Both the position numbers and the translations under genes were made by a program. A stretch of DNA of 64,000 nt from a virus, in IMG/VR virus record IMGVR_UViG_3300020048_000036, positions 1 through 64,000 of that record. One strand, written 5' to 3'. Of this stretch, positions 8,500 to 45,173 are shown piece by piece. Position 1 is the stretch's first letter, and the number at the start of each line of letters is the position of its first letter. Under the pieces are notes generated by a model. The model saw nothing but the letters and a program-made list of their open reading frames with translations, had not been told where the DNA came from and made no database searches.

Positions 8500-8976
8500 T
8501 TAACAGGTTAAGTCGTTCGGCCAAAATTTGCCTAAGATGTTTTGGTTGTAGAACTTATCGGGGTTCCTTAACACGTCCATCTTTATTTGTGCTTCTATTT
8601 CAAGGTATGTTAATTGTTTTGTACAAAACGCAATACCTATTATTTCCTTTGTAATTTTATCTCCTTTCTTGATGTCTGCTTTCAGTTCTTCGTTTGAACC
8701 GCAATATTTTGTCCACGGTCCCTCTACCCTTACTTGGTAAACCCATACAGGTTCTCCTTTCTTGGATGTGGATTTGTTCTTGTGCCGTTTTACTTCCTCG
8801 CCCTTAGCCTTTAAATCCTCAAATACTTTAAGGCTTACCTTCTTCCAACAATACAGGTTTTTCTTTCCAATATAGTTTTTATTCTTTGTTGTATTGTGGA
8901 TGTTGTAGATAAATCCTAATGCGTTTTTTGGAAGTTGTGATGCTTTGGTAACTTCTTTTCCTTTATACTTCCACAT
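8500..8976 (-). CDS. GIY-YIG-like endonuclease
   Basis: GFIY...NYIGKK...YCGSN...YLE...FYN. Confidence 0.7.
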   Translation of the reverse strand: MWKYKGKEVTKASQLPKNALGFIYNIHNTTKNKNYIGKKNLYCWKKVSLKVFEDLKAKGEEVKRHKNKSTSKKGEPVWVYQVRVEGPWTKYCGSNEELKADIKKGDKITKEIIGIAFCTKQLTYLEIEAQIKMDVLRNPDKFYNQNILGKFWPNDLTC

Positions 8977-9976
8977 TTTGCTCCGTTATTTCAAATGTGC
9001 GGTTAAACAAATCTTTTTCGTATTCTGGGTTATCTTTAATAAATTGTATAACGGATTCAATACCCTGTCCTAATTTAATGTCTGCTTGGGGGTCAGAGTA
9101 CCAAGCACCCTTACGTACTACCAATTCTTTTTCACAAGCTAAAGTAGCTAGTTCTACAGCCTTATCAAAACCTTGCTCGTAGAAGTAAGGAACTGTAATT
9201 GATTTACTTACTGCTGATGCGGAAATCTTTGTCTTAATAAGTTTGTATGTTACAGTACGTCCTAGTTCAGGCTTATCTTTAAGTGCAGATGAAGAACAAC
9301 GGATACGAAGCAAAGCGTAAAACTTCAAAGAGTTCCCGCCAGTTGTAGTTTCGGGATTTCCGTACATTACGTTAAGCTTTTCCCTGATTTGATTTATAAA
9401 TACAAGGCATGTTCCTGTACGTTTTACAATACCCTTAATTTTACGAAGACCTTGCGACATCAACAAGGCTTGTTTCCCCATCTTACTTTCACCAAACTCA
9501 CCTTCCAACTCTGCTAATGGTAGCATTGCTGCAACACTATCAATAAGTACCATTCCCATTTCACCCGTTGAAATCAAATCTTCTGCAAGGGTAAATGTTT
9601 CTTCGGTGGTTTCGGGTTGTGCAAAAATAAGTTTCTCAAAGTTAATTCCTATCTTTTTCGCAAGGGATTGGTCAAAGGCTTGCTCTGTGTCCAATATTGC
9701 ACAAACTTTACCAGTCTCTTCTTGACATTGCTTGATAGCATAAAGTGCCGTAGTGGTTTTCATACTAGCTTCTGGTCCATACAACTCTACAATACCTCCT
9801 TTAGGAAAACCTTTTGCTTTGTTACCCCCAATCAACATATTTAAAGACAATATACCAGTAAGGGTTGTTTCTATATTTGAAGATGTGTTTTCCGACAAAA
9901 GGGAAATTGACCCGTTTCCGTGGTCTTTCCTATATTTTGCCATAACATCTTGGTAATTCAATTTCTTATCTGACAT
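8963..9976 (-). CDS. recA: RecA/UvsX recombinase
   Basis: IVELYGPEASMKTT, VLIDSVAAM, FINQIREK, GNPETTTGGNSLKFYA. Confidence 0.97.
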   Translation of the reverse strand: MSDKKLNYQDVMAKYRKDHGNGSISLLSENTSSNIETTLTGILSLNMLIGGNKAKGFPKGGIVELYGPEASMKTTTALYAIKQCQEETGKVCAILDTEQAFDQSLAKKIGINFEKLIFAQPETTEETFTLAEDLISTGEMGMVLIDSVAAMLPLAELEGEFGESKMGKQALLMSQGLRKIKGIVKRTGTCLVFINQIREKLNVMYGNPETTTGGNSLKFYALLRIRCSSSALKDKPELGRTVTYKLIKTKISASAVSKSITVPYFYEQGFDKAVELATLACEKELVVRKGAWYSDPQADIKLGQGIESVIQFIKDNPEYEKDLFNRTFEITEQNVEV

Positions 9977-10296: not shown

Positions 10297-10345
10297 CAAA
10301 GGTAAATAATTTATTTTACAATACCAAATCCCTTACAAATAGGTG
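10297..10345 (-). promoter_or_regulatory. Extended phage promoter driving the recA operon
   Basis: minus strand CACCTATTTGTAAGGGATTTGG-N19-TACCTTTGAA. Confidence 0.75.
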
Positions 10346-10359
10346 CTTTGATAAGAATG

Positions 10360-11074: not shown

Positions 11075-11482
11075 ATGGAATTTGAGGATAAGGTTTATTT
11101 TTTGGAAGATATACTTAATGAGCTTGAGAAAGATGGTTTTAATAAGGATATGGTAAGGGAGGGGTACTACTTATTTCGGGAAAGATTACTGAAAGACTTA
11201 GATACAACTGACAACCTGACATACAAACTCGGAACACTTGGAATGCTCCACTTTACATTAAGTTCACTTACAAGGTTAAAAGATTGGGCCAAAAGGATAA
11301 TAGAGAAGGGTGAAAGGGAAGGAATACCCGAAGAAATTGAGAGGGGAAAGAAAAAACTAACAAATATCATACAACGAAAGAAGTTGATGAACGAGAAAAT
11401 AAAAATAGCCCAGGAAAAAGGGATTAAGAATATACAGTTTTTTCGAGTAAGGTTCAACCCAAAAAACATAAAGAATGAATAA
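11075..11482 (+). CDS. Hypothetical protein, possibly HU/IHF-like
   Basis: helix-helix then KLGTLGMLHF strand; weak family call. Confidence 0.7.
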   Translation: MEFEDKVYFLEDILNELEKDGFNKDMVREGYYLFRERLLKDLDTTDNLTYKLGTLGMLHFTLSSLTRLKDWAKRIIEKGEREGIPEEIERGKKKLTNIIQRKKLMNEKIKIAQEKGIKNIQFFRVRFNPKNIKNE

Positions 11483-12131
11483 GATTAGGCCAAAGAGAAT
11501 AATTGAGGGATGGAAAAATACAATACTTGGAAACCATACAACAATTTCAGATACCCGTATAGAAACATGCAACGGTTGTCCAAATAATAAAGCAGGTGTA
11601 TGCAACATTTGCGGGTGTCCTTTAATAGCAAAGACAAAAGTAATGCAAGAGTTTTGTCCCATAGACAAATGGGACGACATAAAGAAAGTTCCAGATAAGG
11701 GAATAGCAATTAGGCTCCACGAGGTAAATAAAGCCAAAATAAGCGTAGAAGAGGGAATTGTGACAGTTACCCACAACAACACCTACAAAAGGAACGAGGC
11801 TCCCGAAAACACCTTAATAACACTTGATTTTATAAACGCTAGGGCCGACTTACCAAGTATAGTCAATAAAGACATCCCCCTTACCAATATCTACCTTAAA
11901 TATTGCGGGTGTTATGAAGTTAGGTTAAACGGGAAACAAGCGGACTCAAAAGAGAAATCCCACAAGGTACTAGATGATGCACAACATTTGATACTTACAT
12001 TCAAATACAATACAGCCCTTGACCCAAACGAATACTCAATGGAAAAAACAATCAAAGTAATAACAGACCAAGGAACGATACCAATTAAATTCATAGGACA
12101 AGTAAAAGAAGATGATAGAGCAGATTCGTAA
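11475..12131 (+). CDS. Cys-rich Zn-binding N-domain plus DUF1573-like Ig domain
   Basis: R..TCNGC...CNICGC....K......CP..KW; CGC and KTIKV.TD..TIPIKFIGQV. Confidence 0.7.
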   Translation: MNKIRPKRIIEGWKNTILGNHTTISDTRIETCNGCPNNKAGVCNICGCPLIAKTKVMQEFCPIDKWDDIKKVPDKGIAIRLHEVNKAKISVEEGIVTVTHNNTYKRNEAPENTLITLDFINARADLPSIVNKDIPLTNIYLKYCGCYEVRLNGKQADSKEKSHKVLDDAQHLILTFKYNTALDPNEYSMEKTIKVITDQGTIPIKFIGQVKEDDRADS

Positions 12132-14854: not shown

Positions 14855-14905
14855 ACACCTGTTTGTTAGGTTTTTGGTAAATACAAATATTCTAAGTATC
14901 TTGCA
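14855..14905 (+). promoter_or_regulatory. Extended phage promoter (portal)
   Basis: ACACCTGTTTGTTAGGTTTTTGG-N19-TATCTTGCA. Confidence 0.8.
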
Positions 14906-17686: not shown

Positions 17687-17738
17687 TCACCTATTTGTTA
17701 GGTATTTGGTTTTTCCAATAATTGTTTTTATCTTTACA
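17687..17738 (+). promoter_or_regulatory. Extended phage promoter (scaffold/capsid)
   Basis: TCACCTATTTGTTAGGTATTTGG-N19-TATCTTTACA. Confidence 0.8.
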
Positions 17739-33934: not shown

Positions 33935-35293
33935 ATGGCTAATAAGAAGAATATATTAATACTAGAGATAGATGACATTGGTGGTACTTACAACGTATCA
34001 AACGACCCTCTGTTAAGGACACAAGTCATAGTTGTTAAAAGAGCCACAGGAGACACAGGTACATTGACAGGTAGTGTTACTATTGCTGCAACTGCAAATG
34101 TAGAAGATGGTGTTTACTATGAATTTGAACTAGAAGATACATTTGTACTTGGTGCCAATACCTTTAGTATTTTTGGCGAACAACTTACAGCTACCCAATT
34201 ATTAGCTCATCCACAAGTAACCGTAAGGGACAACGGAGCAAGCTATGAAGTATACTTAGAAAACAATGGACTATATGTTACTACAGAAACAGCAAATATA
34301 GCTGATGAAGCAGTAACTTTAGCTAAAATGGCTGACCTTGCAAGAGGTTCTATTATAGTAGGTAACTCTACAACAAGACCTACTGCATACGATGCAAAAA
34401 CATCTGGTAGGATACTTGTAGGGGACGGTACAGACCTTGTTTCAGTTGCGGTAAGCGGTGATGTTACATTGGCTGCAAACGGGGCCGTAACGGTAGCTAA
34501 TGATGCTATAAACAACAACAAACTGGCAAATATTGCCCGTGGTAGTATAAAGGTTGGTGGTACATCTAACGCCCCCACGGATTTGGATGCAAAAACCTCT
34601 GGGTACATTCTTGTAGGTGACGGTACTGATATTAATTCCGTAGCCGTAAGTGGTGATGCAACTTTAAGTTCCGCTGGTGTGGTAACTATTGCAACAGATG
34701 CGATAACAAATACTAAACTTGCCAACATACCAGAAGGTAGTGTAAAAGTAGGAGGAGCATCAAACGCACCAACAGACTTAGACAACTCCACAGCAGGTGC
34801 AATAATCATAGGAAATGGAACAGGTGTAACATCACAAGTACTTACAGGTGCAATTACATTAAATTCAGCAGGTCTAACTACAATAGTGGACGATGCTGTG
34901 GTTACCGCAAAGATACTGGATGATAACGTAACTGTTGATAAAGTTTCTACAAACTTAAAGTATGATACAATAAATTTTGAAGCTAGTTTTGAAACTGGTG
35001 AATTAGGTGCTACAAAGATAAAGCTACCTTTTGGTGGTACTTTAGACAATATTTATGGTTTTGCCACAAAAACAATAGAAGCAACCAACAACGGTACTAT
35101 TACAATAAAGAACCATGCTGGATTAACATTAGCTACAATAACCGCTACCGCAGGTGATATAAGGACTACCGAATATAATAACACCCCTGCTTCAAACAAC
35201 GTATTTGCTATTGAGCAGTATATTACAGTTGAGACAAGCAAAGCTAATGCGGGTGGAAAAGTATTGTTACAGATGAGAGTATTAAAATCATAA
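33935..35293 (+). CDS. Tail fibre/spike protein with three 65-aa repeats
   Basis: units start at 34301, 34496 and 34691 (195-nt period). Confidence 0.75.
   Translation: MANKKNILILEIDDIGGTYNVSNDPLLRTQVIVVKRATGDTGTLTGSVTIAATANVEDGVYYEFELEDTFVLGANTFSIFGEQLTATQLLAHPQVTVRDNGASYEVYLENNGLYVTTETANIADEAVTLAKMADLARGSIIVGNSTTRPTAYDAKTSGRILVGDGTDLVSVAVSGDVTLAANGAVTVANDAINNNKLANIARGSIKVGGTSNAPTDLDAKTSGYILVGDGTDINSVAVSGDATLSSAGVVTIATDAITNTKLANIPEGSVKVGGASNAPTDLDNSTAGAIIIGNGTGVTSQVLTGAITLNSAGLTTIVDDAVVTAKILDDNVTVDKVSTNLKYDTINFEASFETGELGATKIKLPFGGTLDNIYGFATKTIEATNNGTITIKNHAGLTLATITATAGDIRTTEYNNTPASNNVFAIEQYITVETSKANAGGKVLLQMRVLKS
34301..34885 (+). repeat. Three tandem 195-nt coding repeats
   Basis: A.DA....KLA.IARGSI.VG...PT..DAKTSG.ILVGDGTD..SVAVSGD.TL. 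Confidence 0.85.
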
Positions 35294-35332
35294 AGAAATA
35301 GAGCAGTTTTAGTTGGTTTTTACTGTTCGGGA

Positions 35333-35360
35333 GGGAGGGTCTTATGGCTCTCCCTTTTTT
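35333..35360 (+). terminator. Intrinsic terminator
   Basis: GGGAGGGTC-TTAT-GGCTCTCCC-T6. Confidence 0.85.
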
Positions 35361-35361
35361 G

Positions 35362-35414
35362 GTAGGTATTTGTTAGGTTTTTGGTAATGTCAAAACTTTA
35401 TCCTATATTTGTAG
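35362..35414 (+). promoter_or_regulatory. Extended phage promoter driving tnpB
   Basis: GTATTTGTTAGGTTTTTGG-N19-TATATTTGTA, 2 nt before TTG start. Confidence 0.8.
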
Positions 35415-35415
35415 C

Positions 35416-36525
35416 TTGAAATTATACAAAACATACAAGTTCAAACTCAAACCTAATAAGGCACAAGAGGAGACTTTTGAGTCTTGGGTAAATATTTGTA
35501 GGAAAATATACAATGTCGCATTAGAAGAACGTATCTGGGCTTATAAAACACTAGGTAAATCAATTAGCAAATTTGACCAACATAACCAATTACCTGAAAT
35601 TAAAAAATCATTTCCTTATGTAGGTGAAGTGTACTCGAATACCTTACAAGAAGTATTAGATAGATTAGACAAAGCTTATAAAAGTTTCTTCAAAGGTACA
35701 GGTTTTCCTAAGTTTGCCAAGAAAGGAAAATATAATTCTTTCACTTACAAGAGTCGTTTTACTGTTAAAGAAAAAACCATTAAACTACCCAAAATAGGTG
35801 AGGTCAAATATTTTAATTCCCAACCTATTTTGGGTAAACCAAAAACAGCAACAATAATAAAAGAAAACAACGGTTGGTTCATTTGTATAGTTAGTGAATA
35901 TGAAACAGAATTTAATCAAGTGGTGGTTGATAACCAAAACCCCATCGGATTGGATTGTGGTGTTACAAGGTTTCTAGCATTGTCAAATGGTACTTTTATT
36001 GATTCACCAAATTTCCTTCAAAAAGAGAGCAACAAATTAAGGCTACTCCAAAGAAAACTTAGCCGTCAGGTCAAAGGCTCCAAATCCCGTGATAAGACCA
36101 AGCAACAAATAAGGAAACTTCATAAGAAAATTTCCAATAGGCGTTTGGACTTTTTACATAAAACCTCTACCAACCTTTCCAACAATTTTTCCGCTATTTA
36201 CATGGAAGATTTGAATCTCCAAATAATGCAGGAGAAAGGGTTTAAGGAAGTCAACAAAGGTATGTTAGACAATGGTTTTTACACGTTTAAGGTGTTACTT
36301 GGTTACAAGATGGTTGAACGGGGCAAGCACCTTGGTCTTGTTAATCCCGCTTACACTTCCCAAACTTGTTTCTCTTGTGGCAACGTAGATAAACAATCAA
36401 GGATTTCACAATCAGAATACGTCTGTGTCAAATGTGGTTACATAAGTAACGCTGACACTATGGCTTCAAAGAACATATTGAGCAAGGGCATTGCTCAGGT
36501 TACAAAAGTACAACCGTTAGGTTAA
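35416..36525 (+). CDS. tnpB: RNA-guided endonuclease TnpB (IS200/IS605 OrfB)
   Basis: N-terminal KTYKFKLKP, RuvC-I GLDCG, RuvC-II EDL, Zn finger CFSCG...CVKCG, RuvC-III NADTMASKNIL. Confidence 0.95.
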   Translation: MKLYKTYKFKLKPNKAQEETFESWVNICRKIYNVALEERIWAYKTLGKSISKFDQHNQLPEIKKSFPYVGEVYSNTLQEVLDRLDKAYKSFFKGTGFPKFAKKGKYNSFTYKSRFTVKEKTIKLPKIGEVKYFNSQPILGKPKTATIIKENNGWFICIVSEYETEFNQVVVDNQNPIGLDCGVTRFLALSNGTFIDSPNFLQKESNKLRLLQRKLSRQVKGSKSRDKTKQQIRKLHKKISNRRLDFLHKTSTNLSNNFSAIYMEDLNLQIMQEKGFKEVNKGMLDNGFYTFKVLLGYKMVERGKHLGLVNPAYTSQTCFSCGNVDKQSRISQSEYVCVKCGYISNADTMASKNILSKGIAQVTKVQPLG

Positions 36526-36580
36526 GGCTGTAACCAGAATCCCGCTTTGGGAGTTGTCAAACACCTGTTTGTTAGTTTTT
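36470..36580 (+). ncRNA. TnpB omegaRNA/reRNA (3' part) plus guide from 36561; 5' end probably further upstream
   Basis: stems GGGC/GCTC, GGTTACA/TGTAACC, AACC/GGTT, TCCC/GGGA; terminal TCAA with a complementary TTGA at 36478. Confidence 0.75.
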
Positions 36581-36612
36581 TGGATATTAAAAAATTAAGT
36601 TGTAAATTTACA
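36561..36612 (+). promoter_or_regulatory. Extended phage promoter for the ring/muzzle operon (doubles as TnpB guide template)
   Basis: ACACCTGTTTGTTAGTTTTTTGG-N19-TAAATTTACA. Confidence 0.75.
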
Positions 36613-36615
36613 AGC

Positions 36616-37317
36616 ATGACCGTTGGCGAGTTCATTTCAGATGTGAAAAATTCTGTACGTGCCTTAACTAAGGACGACAGGATAAGTGGTAGGTATATCC
36701 ATAGCCTATCAAAAGACTTTACTAGTTACCTTATTGCAAACAGACCCCTTAGTGACGTGCTTAGGGACAGTTCTATTTTCACTGAAATAACCTGTGTGCA
36801 GATGGATAGGGTTAGGGCTGATATATGTGATATTGCGGAGTTCCGAAAGTGTAACAAGGTAATGAAATCCCACTGTAAACTTCCAGAACTATACAACTCT
36901 TCTATCGGCCCACTTGTAACTTCGGTTATGAATATTACAGGGGACGTGACTTACCAACACCTACGTTCCCCCGCAGACTACACGAATGCACAAAAAAGAA
37001 AGTTCCAAACCGCTACAAGATATTGGTATATATCAAATGGATATTTGTATTTATTAGGTTCTACTAGTGAGAGGGTAACTGTAAGCGGTTTGTTTTTGGA
37101 TGAACTTGAAGCACTTAAATTTTCGGAATGTTCTGATAAAGAAGAAAGCGAATGTGATTCAGTACTTGACTATAAGATAGTTATACCTAACAAATACTTA
37201 TCTACGGTAAAGGAACAAACAATTCAACATATTCTTAATACAAGAAAACGTATTCCCGCAGATGAATTGAGTAACCTTGACTCCAATACAAAAACAAACC
37301 AACAATTAGGCCAGTAA
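36616..37317 (+). CDS. Tail ring/adaptor protein (start revised to ATG 36616, MTVGEFISDV)
   Basis: track start overlaps the IS end and promoter; crAss gene order. Confidence 0.75.
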   Translation: MTVGEFISDVKNSVRALTKDDRISGRYIHSLSKDFTSYLIANRPLSDVLRDSSIFTEITCVQMDRVRADICDIAEFRKCNKVMKSHCKLPELYNSSIGPLVTSVMNITGDVTYQHLRSPADYTNAQKRKFQTATRYWYISNGYLYLLGSTSERVTVSGLFLDELEALKFSECSDKEESECDSVLDYKIVIPNKYLSTVKEQTIQHILNTRKRIPADELSNLDSNTKTNQQLGQ

Positions 37318-45121: not shown

Positions 45122-45173
45122 TCACGTATTTGTTAGGTTTTTGGTTATTCCGAATACTTTACCTATCTTTACA
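45122..45173 (+). promoter_or_regulatory. Extended phage promoter (cargo operon)
   Basis: TCACGTATTTGTTAGGTTTTTGG-N19-TATCTTTACA. Confidence 0.8.

Follow-up and report, generated by a model that had tools for sequence, protein, structure and literature searches.

Introduction

TnpB of ISDra2, an insertion sequence (IS) of the IS200/IS605 family from Deinococcus, is an omegaRNA-guided nuclease (Karvelis 2021, PMC8612924). TnpB-dependent but TnpA-independent spread of IS605 has been reported in a plasmid population, and the possibility of homing into co-infecting phages has been raised on theoretical grounds (PMC13565253). In this study we analyzed a tnpB gene in the first 64 kb of the virus genome IMGVR_UViG_3300020048_000036, a complete IMG/VR virus of 130,638 bp with direct terminal repeats; these 64,000 nucleotides are called the window, and coordinates without a locus name refer to it. 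The right end of IS608 from Helicobacter pylori consists of a hairpin and, after it, about 9 nt that close in TCAA, and the target-adjacent motifs (TAMs) are TTAC for IS608 and TTGAT for ISDra2. A guide length of 16 nt was assumed from ISDra2.

The locus is best described from its sequence as an IS605/IS608-like tnpB-omegaRNA cassette without tnpA and without a left end, whose lineage was found so far only on phage-like contigs. We regard it, with reasonable though not high confidence, as the surviving right part of such an element beside a late promoter of the phage, with selfish homing as its most likely present role.

The TnpB protein and its predicted omegaRNA

The tnpB gene (35416-36525, plus strand) starts with TTG and encodes 369 aa, the same full length as in its relatives, with the C-terminus intact. 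All three Pfam domains of TnpB were detected above their cut-offs, namely HTH_OrfB_IS605 (1.8e-11), OrfB_IS605, the RuvC domain (8.9e-25), and the Cas12f1-like TNB zinc ribbon (5.9e-19). An earlier note on this stretch had described the RuvC D-E-D triad as intact, which holds: D180, E264 and D347 are invariant in 38 homologues, and the cysteines of the CxxC..CxxC zinc finger are invariant or nearly so. The three catalytic residues also align with the RuvC motifs (GvDlG, vEDL, and the D before the final helix) of the TnpB-like nuclease 9yyg in the Protein Data Bank, which was designed by artificial intelligence, while the best solved relative is TnpB of ISDra2 (8EXA/8H1J, 5e-38). The nuclease thus looks active. 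By its domains, its triad and its structured omegaRNA the protein falls within the IS200/IS605-family TnpBs (OMEGA nucleases), and its identity to any cultured-phage or bacterial TnpB found is only 30-39%.

A total of 12 further loci with TnpBs 55-78% identical were gathered from IMG/VR, ENA and Logan, giving 13 loci including the window; related loci and contigs are designated by L numbers below. In all 13, conservation runs from the tnpB stop codon through a GAAT motif and a hairpin with a covarying stem to about 9 nt ending in GTCAA, and then ends. The 16 nt after GTCAA differ in every locus, and the flanks diverge exactly at 36561. In the window the terminal hairpin occupies 36541-36552 and the closing TCAA 36557-36560 (plus strand), features conserved in all loci. 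This comparison supports the right-end boundary after TCAA at 36560 and the start of the predicted guide at 36561, as the earlier note had placed them. The predicted guide is 36561-36576 (plus strand), the DNA directly 3' of the right end, which is at the same time the upstream part of the promoter of the following gene, encoding tail ring protein 2 (ring-2).

The predicted omegaRNA scaffold (36386-36560, plus strand; well-supported core 36454-36560) overlaps the tnpB 3' end and the right end. RNAalifold on the 13 loci yielded 34 consensus pairs, 21 of them with compensatory changes, and one covarying pairing (GAC/GUC) is long-range and closes the scaffold on the last bases ahead of the guide. 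An omegaRNA at the 3' end of tnpB is therefore well supported in silico. The Rfam search returned no omegaRNA or other family above threshold.

The left boundary and the loss of tnpA

Two syntenic relatives have no tnpB at this site, L016 and L286, whose ring-2 proteins are 62% and 70% identical to that of the window. In both of them the homologous stop codon is followed by the same 16-mer block, a stable hairpin and a T-run, and then immediately by the ring-2 promoter. The corresponding window features are a conserved 16-nt block of the 3' untranslated region (3'UTR) at 35306-35321, an intrinsic-terminator hairpin at 35329-35354 and a T-run at 35355-35360, so that 35306-35360 (plus strand) is phage backbone and not IS DNA. 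Folding energies of the terminator hairpins are -16 to -20 kcal/mol (z about -3.7 to -3.9); a simple terminator scan missed the one at 35329-35360, and it is folding and positional conservation that support a terminator. The upstream gene accordingly has its 3'UTR and terminator in 35294-35360, a stretch that includes CTGT at 35323-35326 and the hairpin.

As this DNA belongs to the backbone in L016 and L286, both the left boundary at 35327 and the CTGT TAM that had been proposed are artefacts. The earlier note had itself held that a left boundary found elsewhere in relatives would speak against its proposal, and the comparison with the tnpB-less relatives places it elsewhere. Its statement that deleting 35327-36560 rebuilds CTGT plus the 15-mer is arithmetically true; since the boundary is arbitrary, the junction is a coincidence. 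On the other side, 35364-35415 shows homology to the tnpA-tnpB intergenic promoter region, both in L162, which is a full element, and in L017. With backbone to the left and IS intergenic homology to the right, IS-derived DNA therefore starts inside the T-run (35355-35360) or directly behind it. The window copy has lost its left end, tnpA and the original TAM, probably by a deletion whose inferred endpoints were the terminator T-run and a second T-run, of the IS intergenic region. The left end with its subterminal hairpin, which is conserved in L167, L021, L249 and L164, is absent from the window copy.

Three other candidates on this side were rejected. TTAC at 35321-35324 as an IS608-type TAM and TCAT at 35288-35291, overlapping the upstream stop codon, both lie in DNA that is backbone in L016 and L286. 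The similarity of the window hairpin region to the L167 left end (local score 24) is noise; unrelated loci scored 25-33, and homology to L016 and L286 explains the region.

The absence of tnpA from the window, noted earlier, extends to the whole genome, in which no Y1 (HUH) transposase was detected (no PF01797 match across 130,638 bp). A divergent Y1 tnpA lies upstream of tnpB in L162, L165, L167/168, L021 and L249, which is the complete IS605-type arrangement; the window copy has neither the tnpA nor the left end of such an autonomous element. Besides the window, tnpA is also lost in L017, L018, L020, L022, L163, L166 and L251-254. This recurrent loss with retention of tnpB in many phages suggests that tnpB alone may be maintained. 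One such loss can be followed between L164 (1-120) and L165 (1-60), which encode identical TnpBs; L164 lost tnpA through a deletion between two short TTTTAC repeats and kept its left end.

Each locus has a different flank, and even the identical TnpBs of L164 and L165 are flanked differently. The closest relative with visible context, L017 (TnpB 77% identical), resides in a related phage (terminase large subunit, TerL, 63.5% identical) at a different place, between homologues of the window genes 11075-11482 and 11475-12131. The different flanks and insertion sites therefore indicate a mobile lineage. Where context is visible in the collections scanned, the lineage sits on phage-like contigs. 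Scans with a TnpB profile gave relatives of at most 47% among JGI metagenome contigs and of at most 38% among GTDB species genomes, and a left-end motif scan of IMG/VR returned one contig only, which was already known. A different tnpB was observed in L286 (L286:5386-6600) directly after the ring-2 stop codon, although L286 is tnpB-less at the site of the window cassette. It was called as 348 aa, its frame looks open from a TTG 3 nt past the stop, and it lacks both a promoter and a left end of its own; ...GGATGTCAA once more closes the right end.

The probable target-adjacent motif of the lineage

TTCAT adjoins the conserved left end on its outer side in L167, L021, L249 and L163, where the flanks farther out are unrelated, and TCAT stands at the same spacing in L164. 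The L017 insertion is bracketed by ...GTCAT on its left and by its own GTCAA followed by TCAT... on its right, and the window supplies the empty site (11470-11482, at the overlap of two phage genes) that was used to fix the L017 TAM. Counting TCAT as part of the IS would leave its outside without any conserved motif; TTCAT, or at least TCAT, is therefore taken as the target. From these six independent insertions the TAM of the lineage would be TTCAT/TCAT. The proposed CTGT is thus replaced by a different motif, which is again an outcome that the earlier note had counted against itself.

TTCAT is the complement of ATGAA, and five insertions abut the start codons of minus-strand phage genes (L167:2533-2539, a metallophosphatase gene; L021:4443-4449; L163:4853-4859; L249:2432-2438; L017:4881-4885). 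The left end of the IS therefore becomes the new 5' leader of the gene.

The guide and the late-promoter family

The 15-mer after 36560 recurs exactly at 14855-14869, and the match extends to 22 of 23 nt over 14855-14877 (plus strand), the promoter copy of the portal gene. Weaker copies are found at 17687 (2 mismatches), 45122 (3) and 10346 on the minus strand (3), and 35362-35376 matches at 10 of 15 positions; all these counts, as reported before, are real. With up to three mismatches, the 16-nt promoter core occurs at 11 sites where 3.0 would be expected, a count that none of the shuffles attained. It has no mismatch at 14862, 35369 and 45129, and one at 17694 and 36568. Over the whole genome the motif marks five to six intergenic sites upstream of structural genes, including those for the portal, ring-2 and a virion protein. 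On this pattern it is interpreted as a family of late-type promoters, with an extended element upstream; its members include 17687-17709 and 45122-45144 (plus strand) and, as a weaker one, 10324-10346 (minus strand). The member next to the cassette is the promoter of the ring-2 gene (36561-36615, plus strand; core 36568-36583, one mismatch), and its positional equivalent directly follows the terminator in L016 and L286. The upstream element of these promoters is unusually long, about 23 nt (CACCT-N-TTTGTTAGGTTTTTGG; sites 14855, 17687, 36561 and 45122 on the plus strand and 10346 on the minus strand), and its conservation suggests a sequence-specific factor or concerted promoter evolution.

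The only strong guide match besides the donor, on both strands of the 130,638 bp, is the one at 14855 (15/16). This site is preceded by ATCTGT, the other promoter copies by AACGTA, AAAATA and ATCAAA, and the donor copy by GTCAA. No guide match of at least 12/16 flanked by TTCAT was found on either strand of the genome, and self-cutting or promoter binding is therefore not predicted. The guide resembles the portal promoter because the cassette abuts one copy of a repeated promoter family. The guides of the 12 sister elements have no relation to promoters, so the match derives from one insertion site and is not a property of the family. The second target that the earlier note had seen at the portal promoter thus lacks the family TAM, and the apparent paradox of an active RNA-guided nuclease with a target in its own genome dissolves into a by-product of the landing site.

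That tnpB has a promoter copy of its own was correctly recognized before. The promoter (35361-35415, plus strand) has a -33-type core at 35369-35384 with no mismatch to the phage promoter family and a -7-type box at 35404-35411. Its -33-type element has the GTTAGG-type core of the portal promoter, again with no mismatch. The tnpB promoter of L017 (4940-4994) is of the GACAGG type, as is the TerL-portal intergenic promoter of its host phage, and that of L020 (4890-5000) is of the GGTAG type and has about 20 of 23 positions in common with the portal promoter of its host phage (L289, portal upstream). The variant in L162 resembles the phage promoters of the L016 type. The agreement with each phage's own variant in three phages suggests promoter conversion or capture by the IS. 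Such tracking of host late promoters explains why tnpB has its own copy, and tnpB is by this evidence predicted to be wired into the late programme.

An identity island shared with a related phage

The same cassette was found at the same site in one related phage, phage B, which is represented by four Logan contigs from the three samples SRR26786828, SRR22808077 and SRR26786836 (L282-284, identical where they overlap, on the right side, and L285 on the left side). The two phages have 100% nucleotide identity over a tract of 1,508 nt (35156-36663), of which 35442-35511 is in no contig. To the left, identity stays at 90-100% back to about 34742 and is 52-97% per 100 nt beyond; to the right it falls to 95, 92, 86, 74 and 69% per 100 nt and is then 67-99%. 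Of all tracts above 1 kb in the roughly 9 kb that were compared, the one centred on the cassette alone reaches 100%, and there are short patches at 97-99% identity outside it.

An identity island around the element between otherwise diverged genomes, as expected of a homing element, is thus present, and the perfect tract with decaying flanks is suggestive of homing and co-conversion during double-strand-break repair. In T-even phages, the same island signature accompanies free-standing homing endonuclease genes (PMC13565253). The cassette looks to have been recently copied between related phages. Of the homing-like weapon against the empty allele and the conserved promoters of relatives that the earlier note had considered, the first part fits the island with a diverged phage, whereas the conserved promoter at the portal gene lacks a TAM. 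The island shared with phage B and the tnpB promoter that copies the phage's own late-promoter variant in three phages are new here.

Proposed mechanism and alternative explanations

We propose that the terminator of the upstream fibre-like gene and the ring-2 late promoter were separated by the insertion of an IS605/IS608-like element. Since a TnpB guide is the DNA adjoining the right end, the guide then became the first 16 nt of the ring-2 promoter, which best resembles the portal promoter. The copy at the right end would be shielded by ...GTCAA in place of the TAM. Late in infection, a promoter mimicking the phage's own late promoters would drive the synthesis of TnpB, which would cut the tnpB-less allele (TTCAT plus the ring-2 promoter) of a co-infecting relative. 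The cassette, together with some flanking DNA, would be copied into that genome by recombinational repair, amounting to TnpA-independent, non-restorative homing. The wider idea of an RNA-guided gene drive among co-infecting crAss-like phages, in which the promoter converges on the late variant of each host phage, is held only tentatively, at somewhat less than an even chance.

Several points weigh against selfish homing. The TAM was taken from relatives at 68-77% protein identity and not from this protein, and the ancestral TAM at the site is deleted, so that a TTCAT-flanked natural target remains a prediction; expression and omegaRNA processing are likewise predicted. A scan of IMG/VR with the 15-mer gave 26 chance matches in unrelated viruses, with no empty site and no close empty allele, and the only empty alleles found (L016 and L286) are too diverged, with neither the 15-mer nor TTCAT at the site. 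The terminal hairpin is shorter in the window (4 bp) than in the relatives. Phage B is visible over only about 9 kb, in four short contigs that break inside tnpB, and the island could stem from ordinary mosaic recombination of phages without any cleavage by TnpB.

The last point leads to an inert remnant, a stranded, non-mobile IS fragment that is passively carried, with the island as a product of mosaic recombination. We consider this unlikely, though it is the strongest of the alternatives. The losses of the left end, tnpA and TAM and the shortened hairpin would be natural in a remnant, phage genomes are generally mosaic, and the comparison has 97-99% patches elsewhere. However, the open reading frame is intact with all invariant residues, covariation shows the omegaRNA scaffold to be kept, tnpA was lost recurrently with tnpB kept in many phages, and a perfect tract above 1 kb occurs once in the 9 kb or so compared, centred on the cassette and decaying on both sides. 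A self-targeting or regulatory TnpB, whose ribonucleoprotein would bind or cut the portal promoter, other late promoters and its own promoter through a CTGT TAM and thereby regulate structural operons, is a very improbable reading. The 15/16 guide identity at 14855, the common promoter family and the precedent of the TldR repressors (PMC10705468) make it attractive, yet CTGT at 35323-35326 is backbone that does not adjoin IS DNA, no promoter copy is flanked by the family TAM TTCAT, the RuvC triad and full-length C-terminus are conserved unlike in TldRs, and promoter targeting is not a family trait given the 12 unrelated sister guides. The autoregulated RNA-guided regulator of the earlier note falls with it on the same grounds. 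Equally hard to credit is a weapon that is not a drive, by which TnpB would cut relatives that have TAM and target but are too diverged for repair and would give an advantage without copying of the cassette. It draws on the same evidence as homing, and free-standing homing endonucleases are a known example of the concept (PMC13565253), but the tnpB-less L016 and L286, having neither the 15-mer nor TTCAT at the site, would not be cut, and the island shows that copying did occur.

The phage and the neighboring genes

The terminase is 32% identical to those of the Cellulophaga phages phi17:2 and phi4:1 and of an epsilon crAss-like phage. The 905-aa gene after 14855 encodes the portal (phrog_6547, 1.5e-83), and the genes to the right of the cassette are CrAss_Ring_2 (36616-37317, plus strand; Pfam PF25702, 1.9e-20) and CrAss_Ring_1. 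The phage promoters show the TTTG / TAnnTTTG look of Bacteroidota. By its terminase, portal, ring genes and promoters the genome is classified as that of a crAss-like phage of Bacteroidota, whose host is probably a member of the Flavobacteriia. A nucleotide search against cultured phages gave no match.

The upstream gene (33935-35293, plus strand, from the open reading frame list) encodes 452 aa with DUF5907 repeats (Pfam) and is probably a fibre or decoration protein. In L286 and L285 its homologues precede the ring-2 gene; an initial scan with this protein gave repeat-domain matches only and no synteny. A second assembly of 131,054 bp, 416 bp different in length, encodes a protein identical to that of 33935-35293 (P0143) and is probably the same phage from another sample. 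The phage also encodes a RecA homologue (8963-9976, minus strand; Pfam RecA, 2.6e-74), which is relevant to recombinational repair and homing, with the weaker copy of the late-promoter motif at 10324-10346 upstream of it.

Comparison with known systems

The lineage is a well-delimited IS605-like one on phage-like contigs, with a defined right end and left end, a probable TAM and an omegaRNA supported by covariation. The island signature suggests recombination as a way for TnpB cassettes to pass between related lytic phages, a mode that was proposed in theory and shown only for plasmids. Lineage, tnpA loss, island and promoter tracking together make phage-to-phage homing of TnpB directly testable. 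If true, the gene-drive reading would account for the 1.5-kb island of perfect identity as well as for the recurrent loss of tnpA, and TnpA-independent homing of TnpB between viruses would have its first evidence from natural sequences.

The cassette is like IS608/IS605 and ISDra2 in the three Pfam domains, the RuvC D-E-D triad, the zinc finger, a right end with a hairpin and a tail closing in TCAA as in IS608, and an omegaRNA that spans the tnpB 3' end and the right end with the flank as guide, and its full relatives carry a divergent Y1 tnpA as IS605 does. It differs in the inferred TAM TTCAT, against TTAC in IS608 and TTGAT in ISDra2, in a lineage seen only on phage-like contigs, and in the missing left end and tnpA of the window copy. 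TldRs, the nuclease-dead TnpB-derived RNA-guided repressors (PMC10705468), are likewise phage-borne TnpB homologues with a guide region resembling a promoter. However, TldRs are marked by loss of RuvC residues or C-terminal truncation and by a TAM-flanked promoter target, whereas here the triad and C-terminus are intact, the matched promoters have no TAM, and the match is explained by the position of the insertion. The T-even phage genes for free-standing homing endonucleases (Seg and Mob, with localized marker exclusion and co-conversion) and the proposed non-restorative homing of transposons (PMC13565253) agree with the cassette in a nuclease gene placed between conserved phage genes, in an identity island with decaying flanks between diverged phages and in a recombinase of the phage's own, here the RecA homologue. 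In contrast to these systems, the target of the cassette would be set by RNA and a TAM instead of by the protein, self-protection would come from the right end replacing the TAM, and the evidence here comes from sequence.

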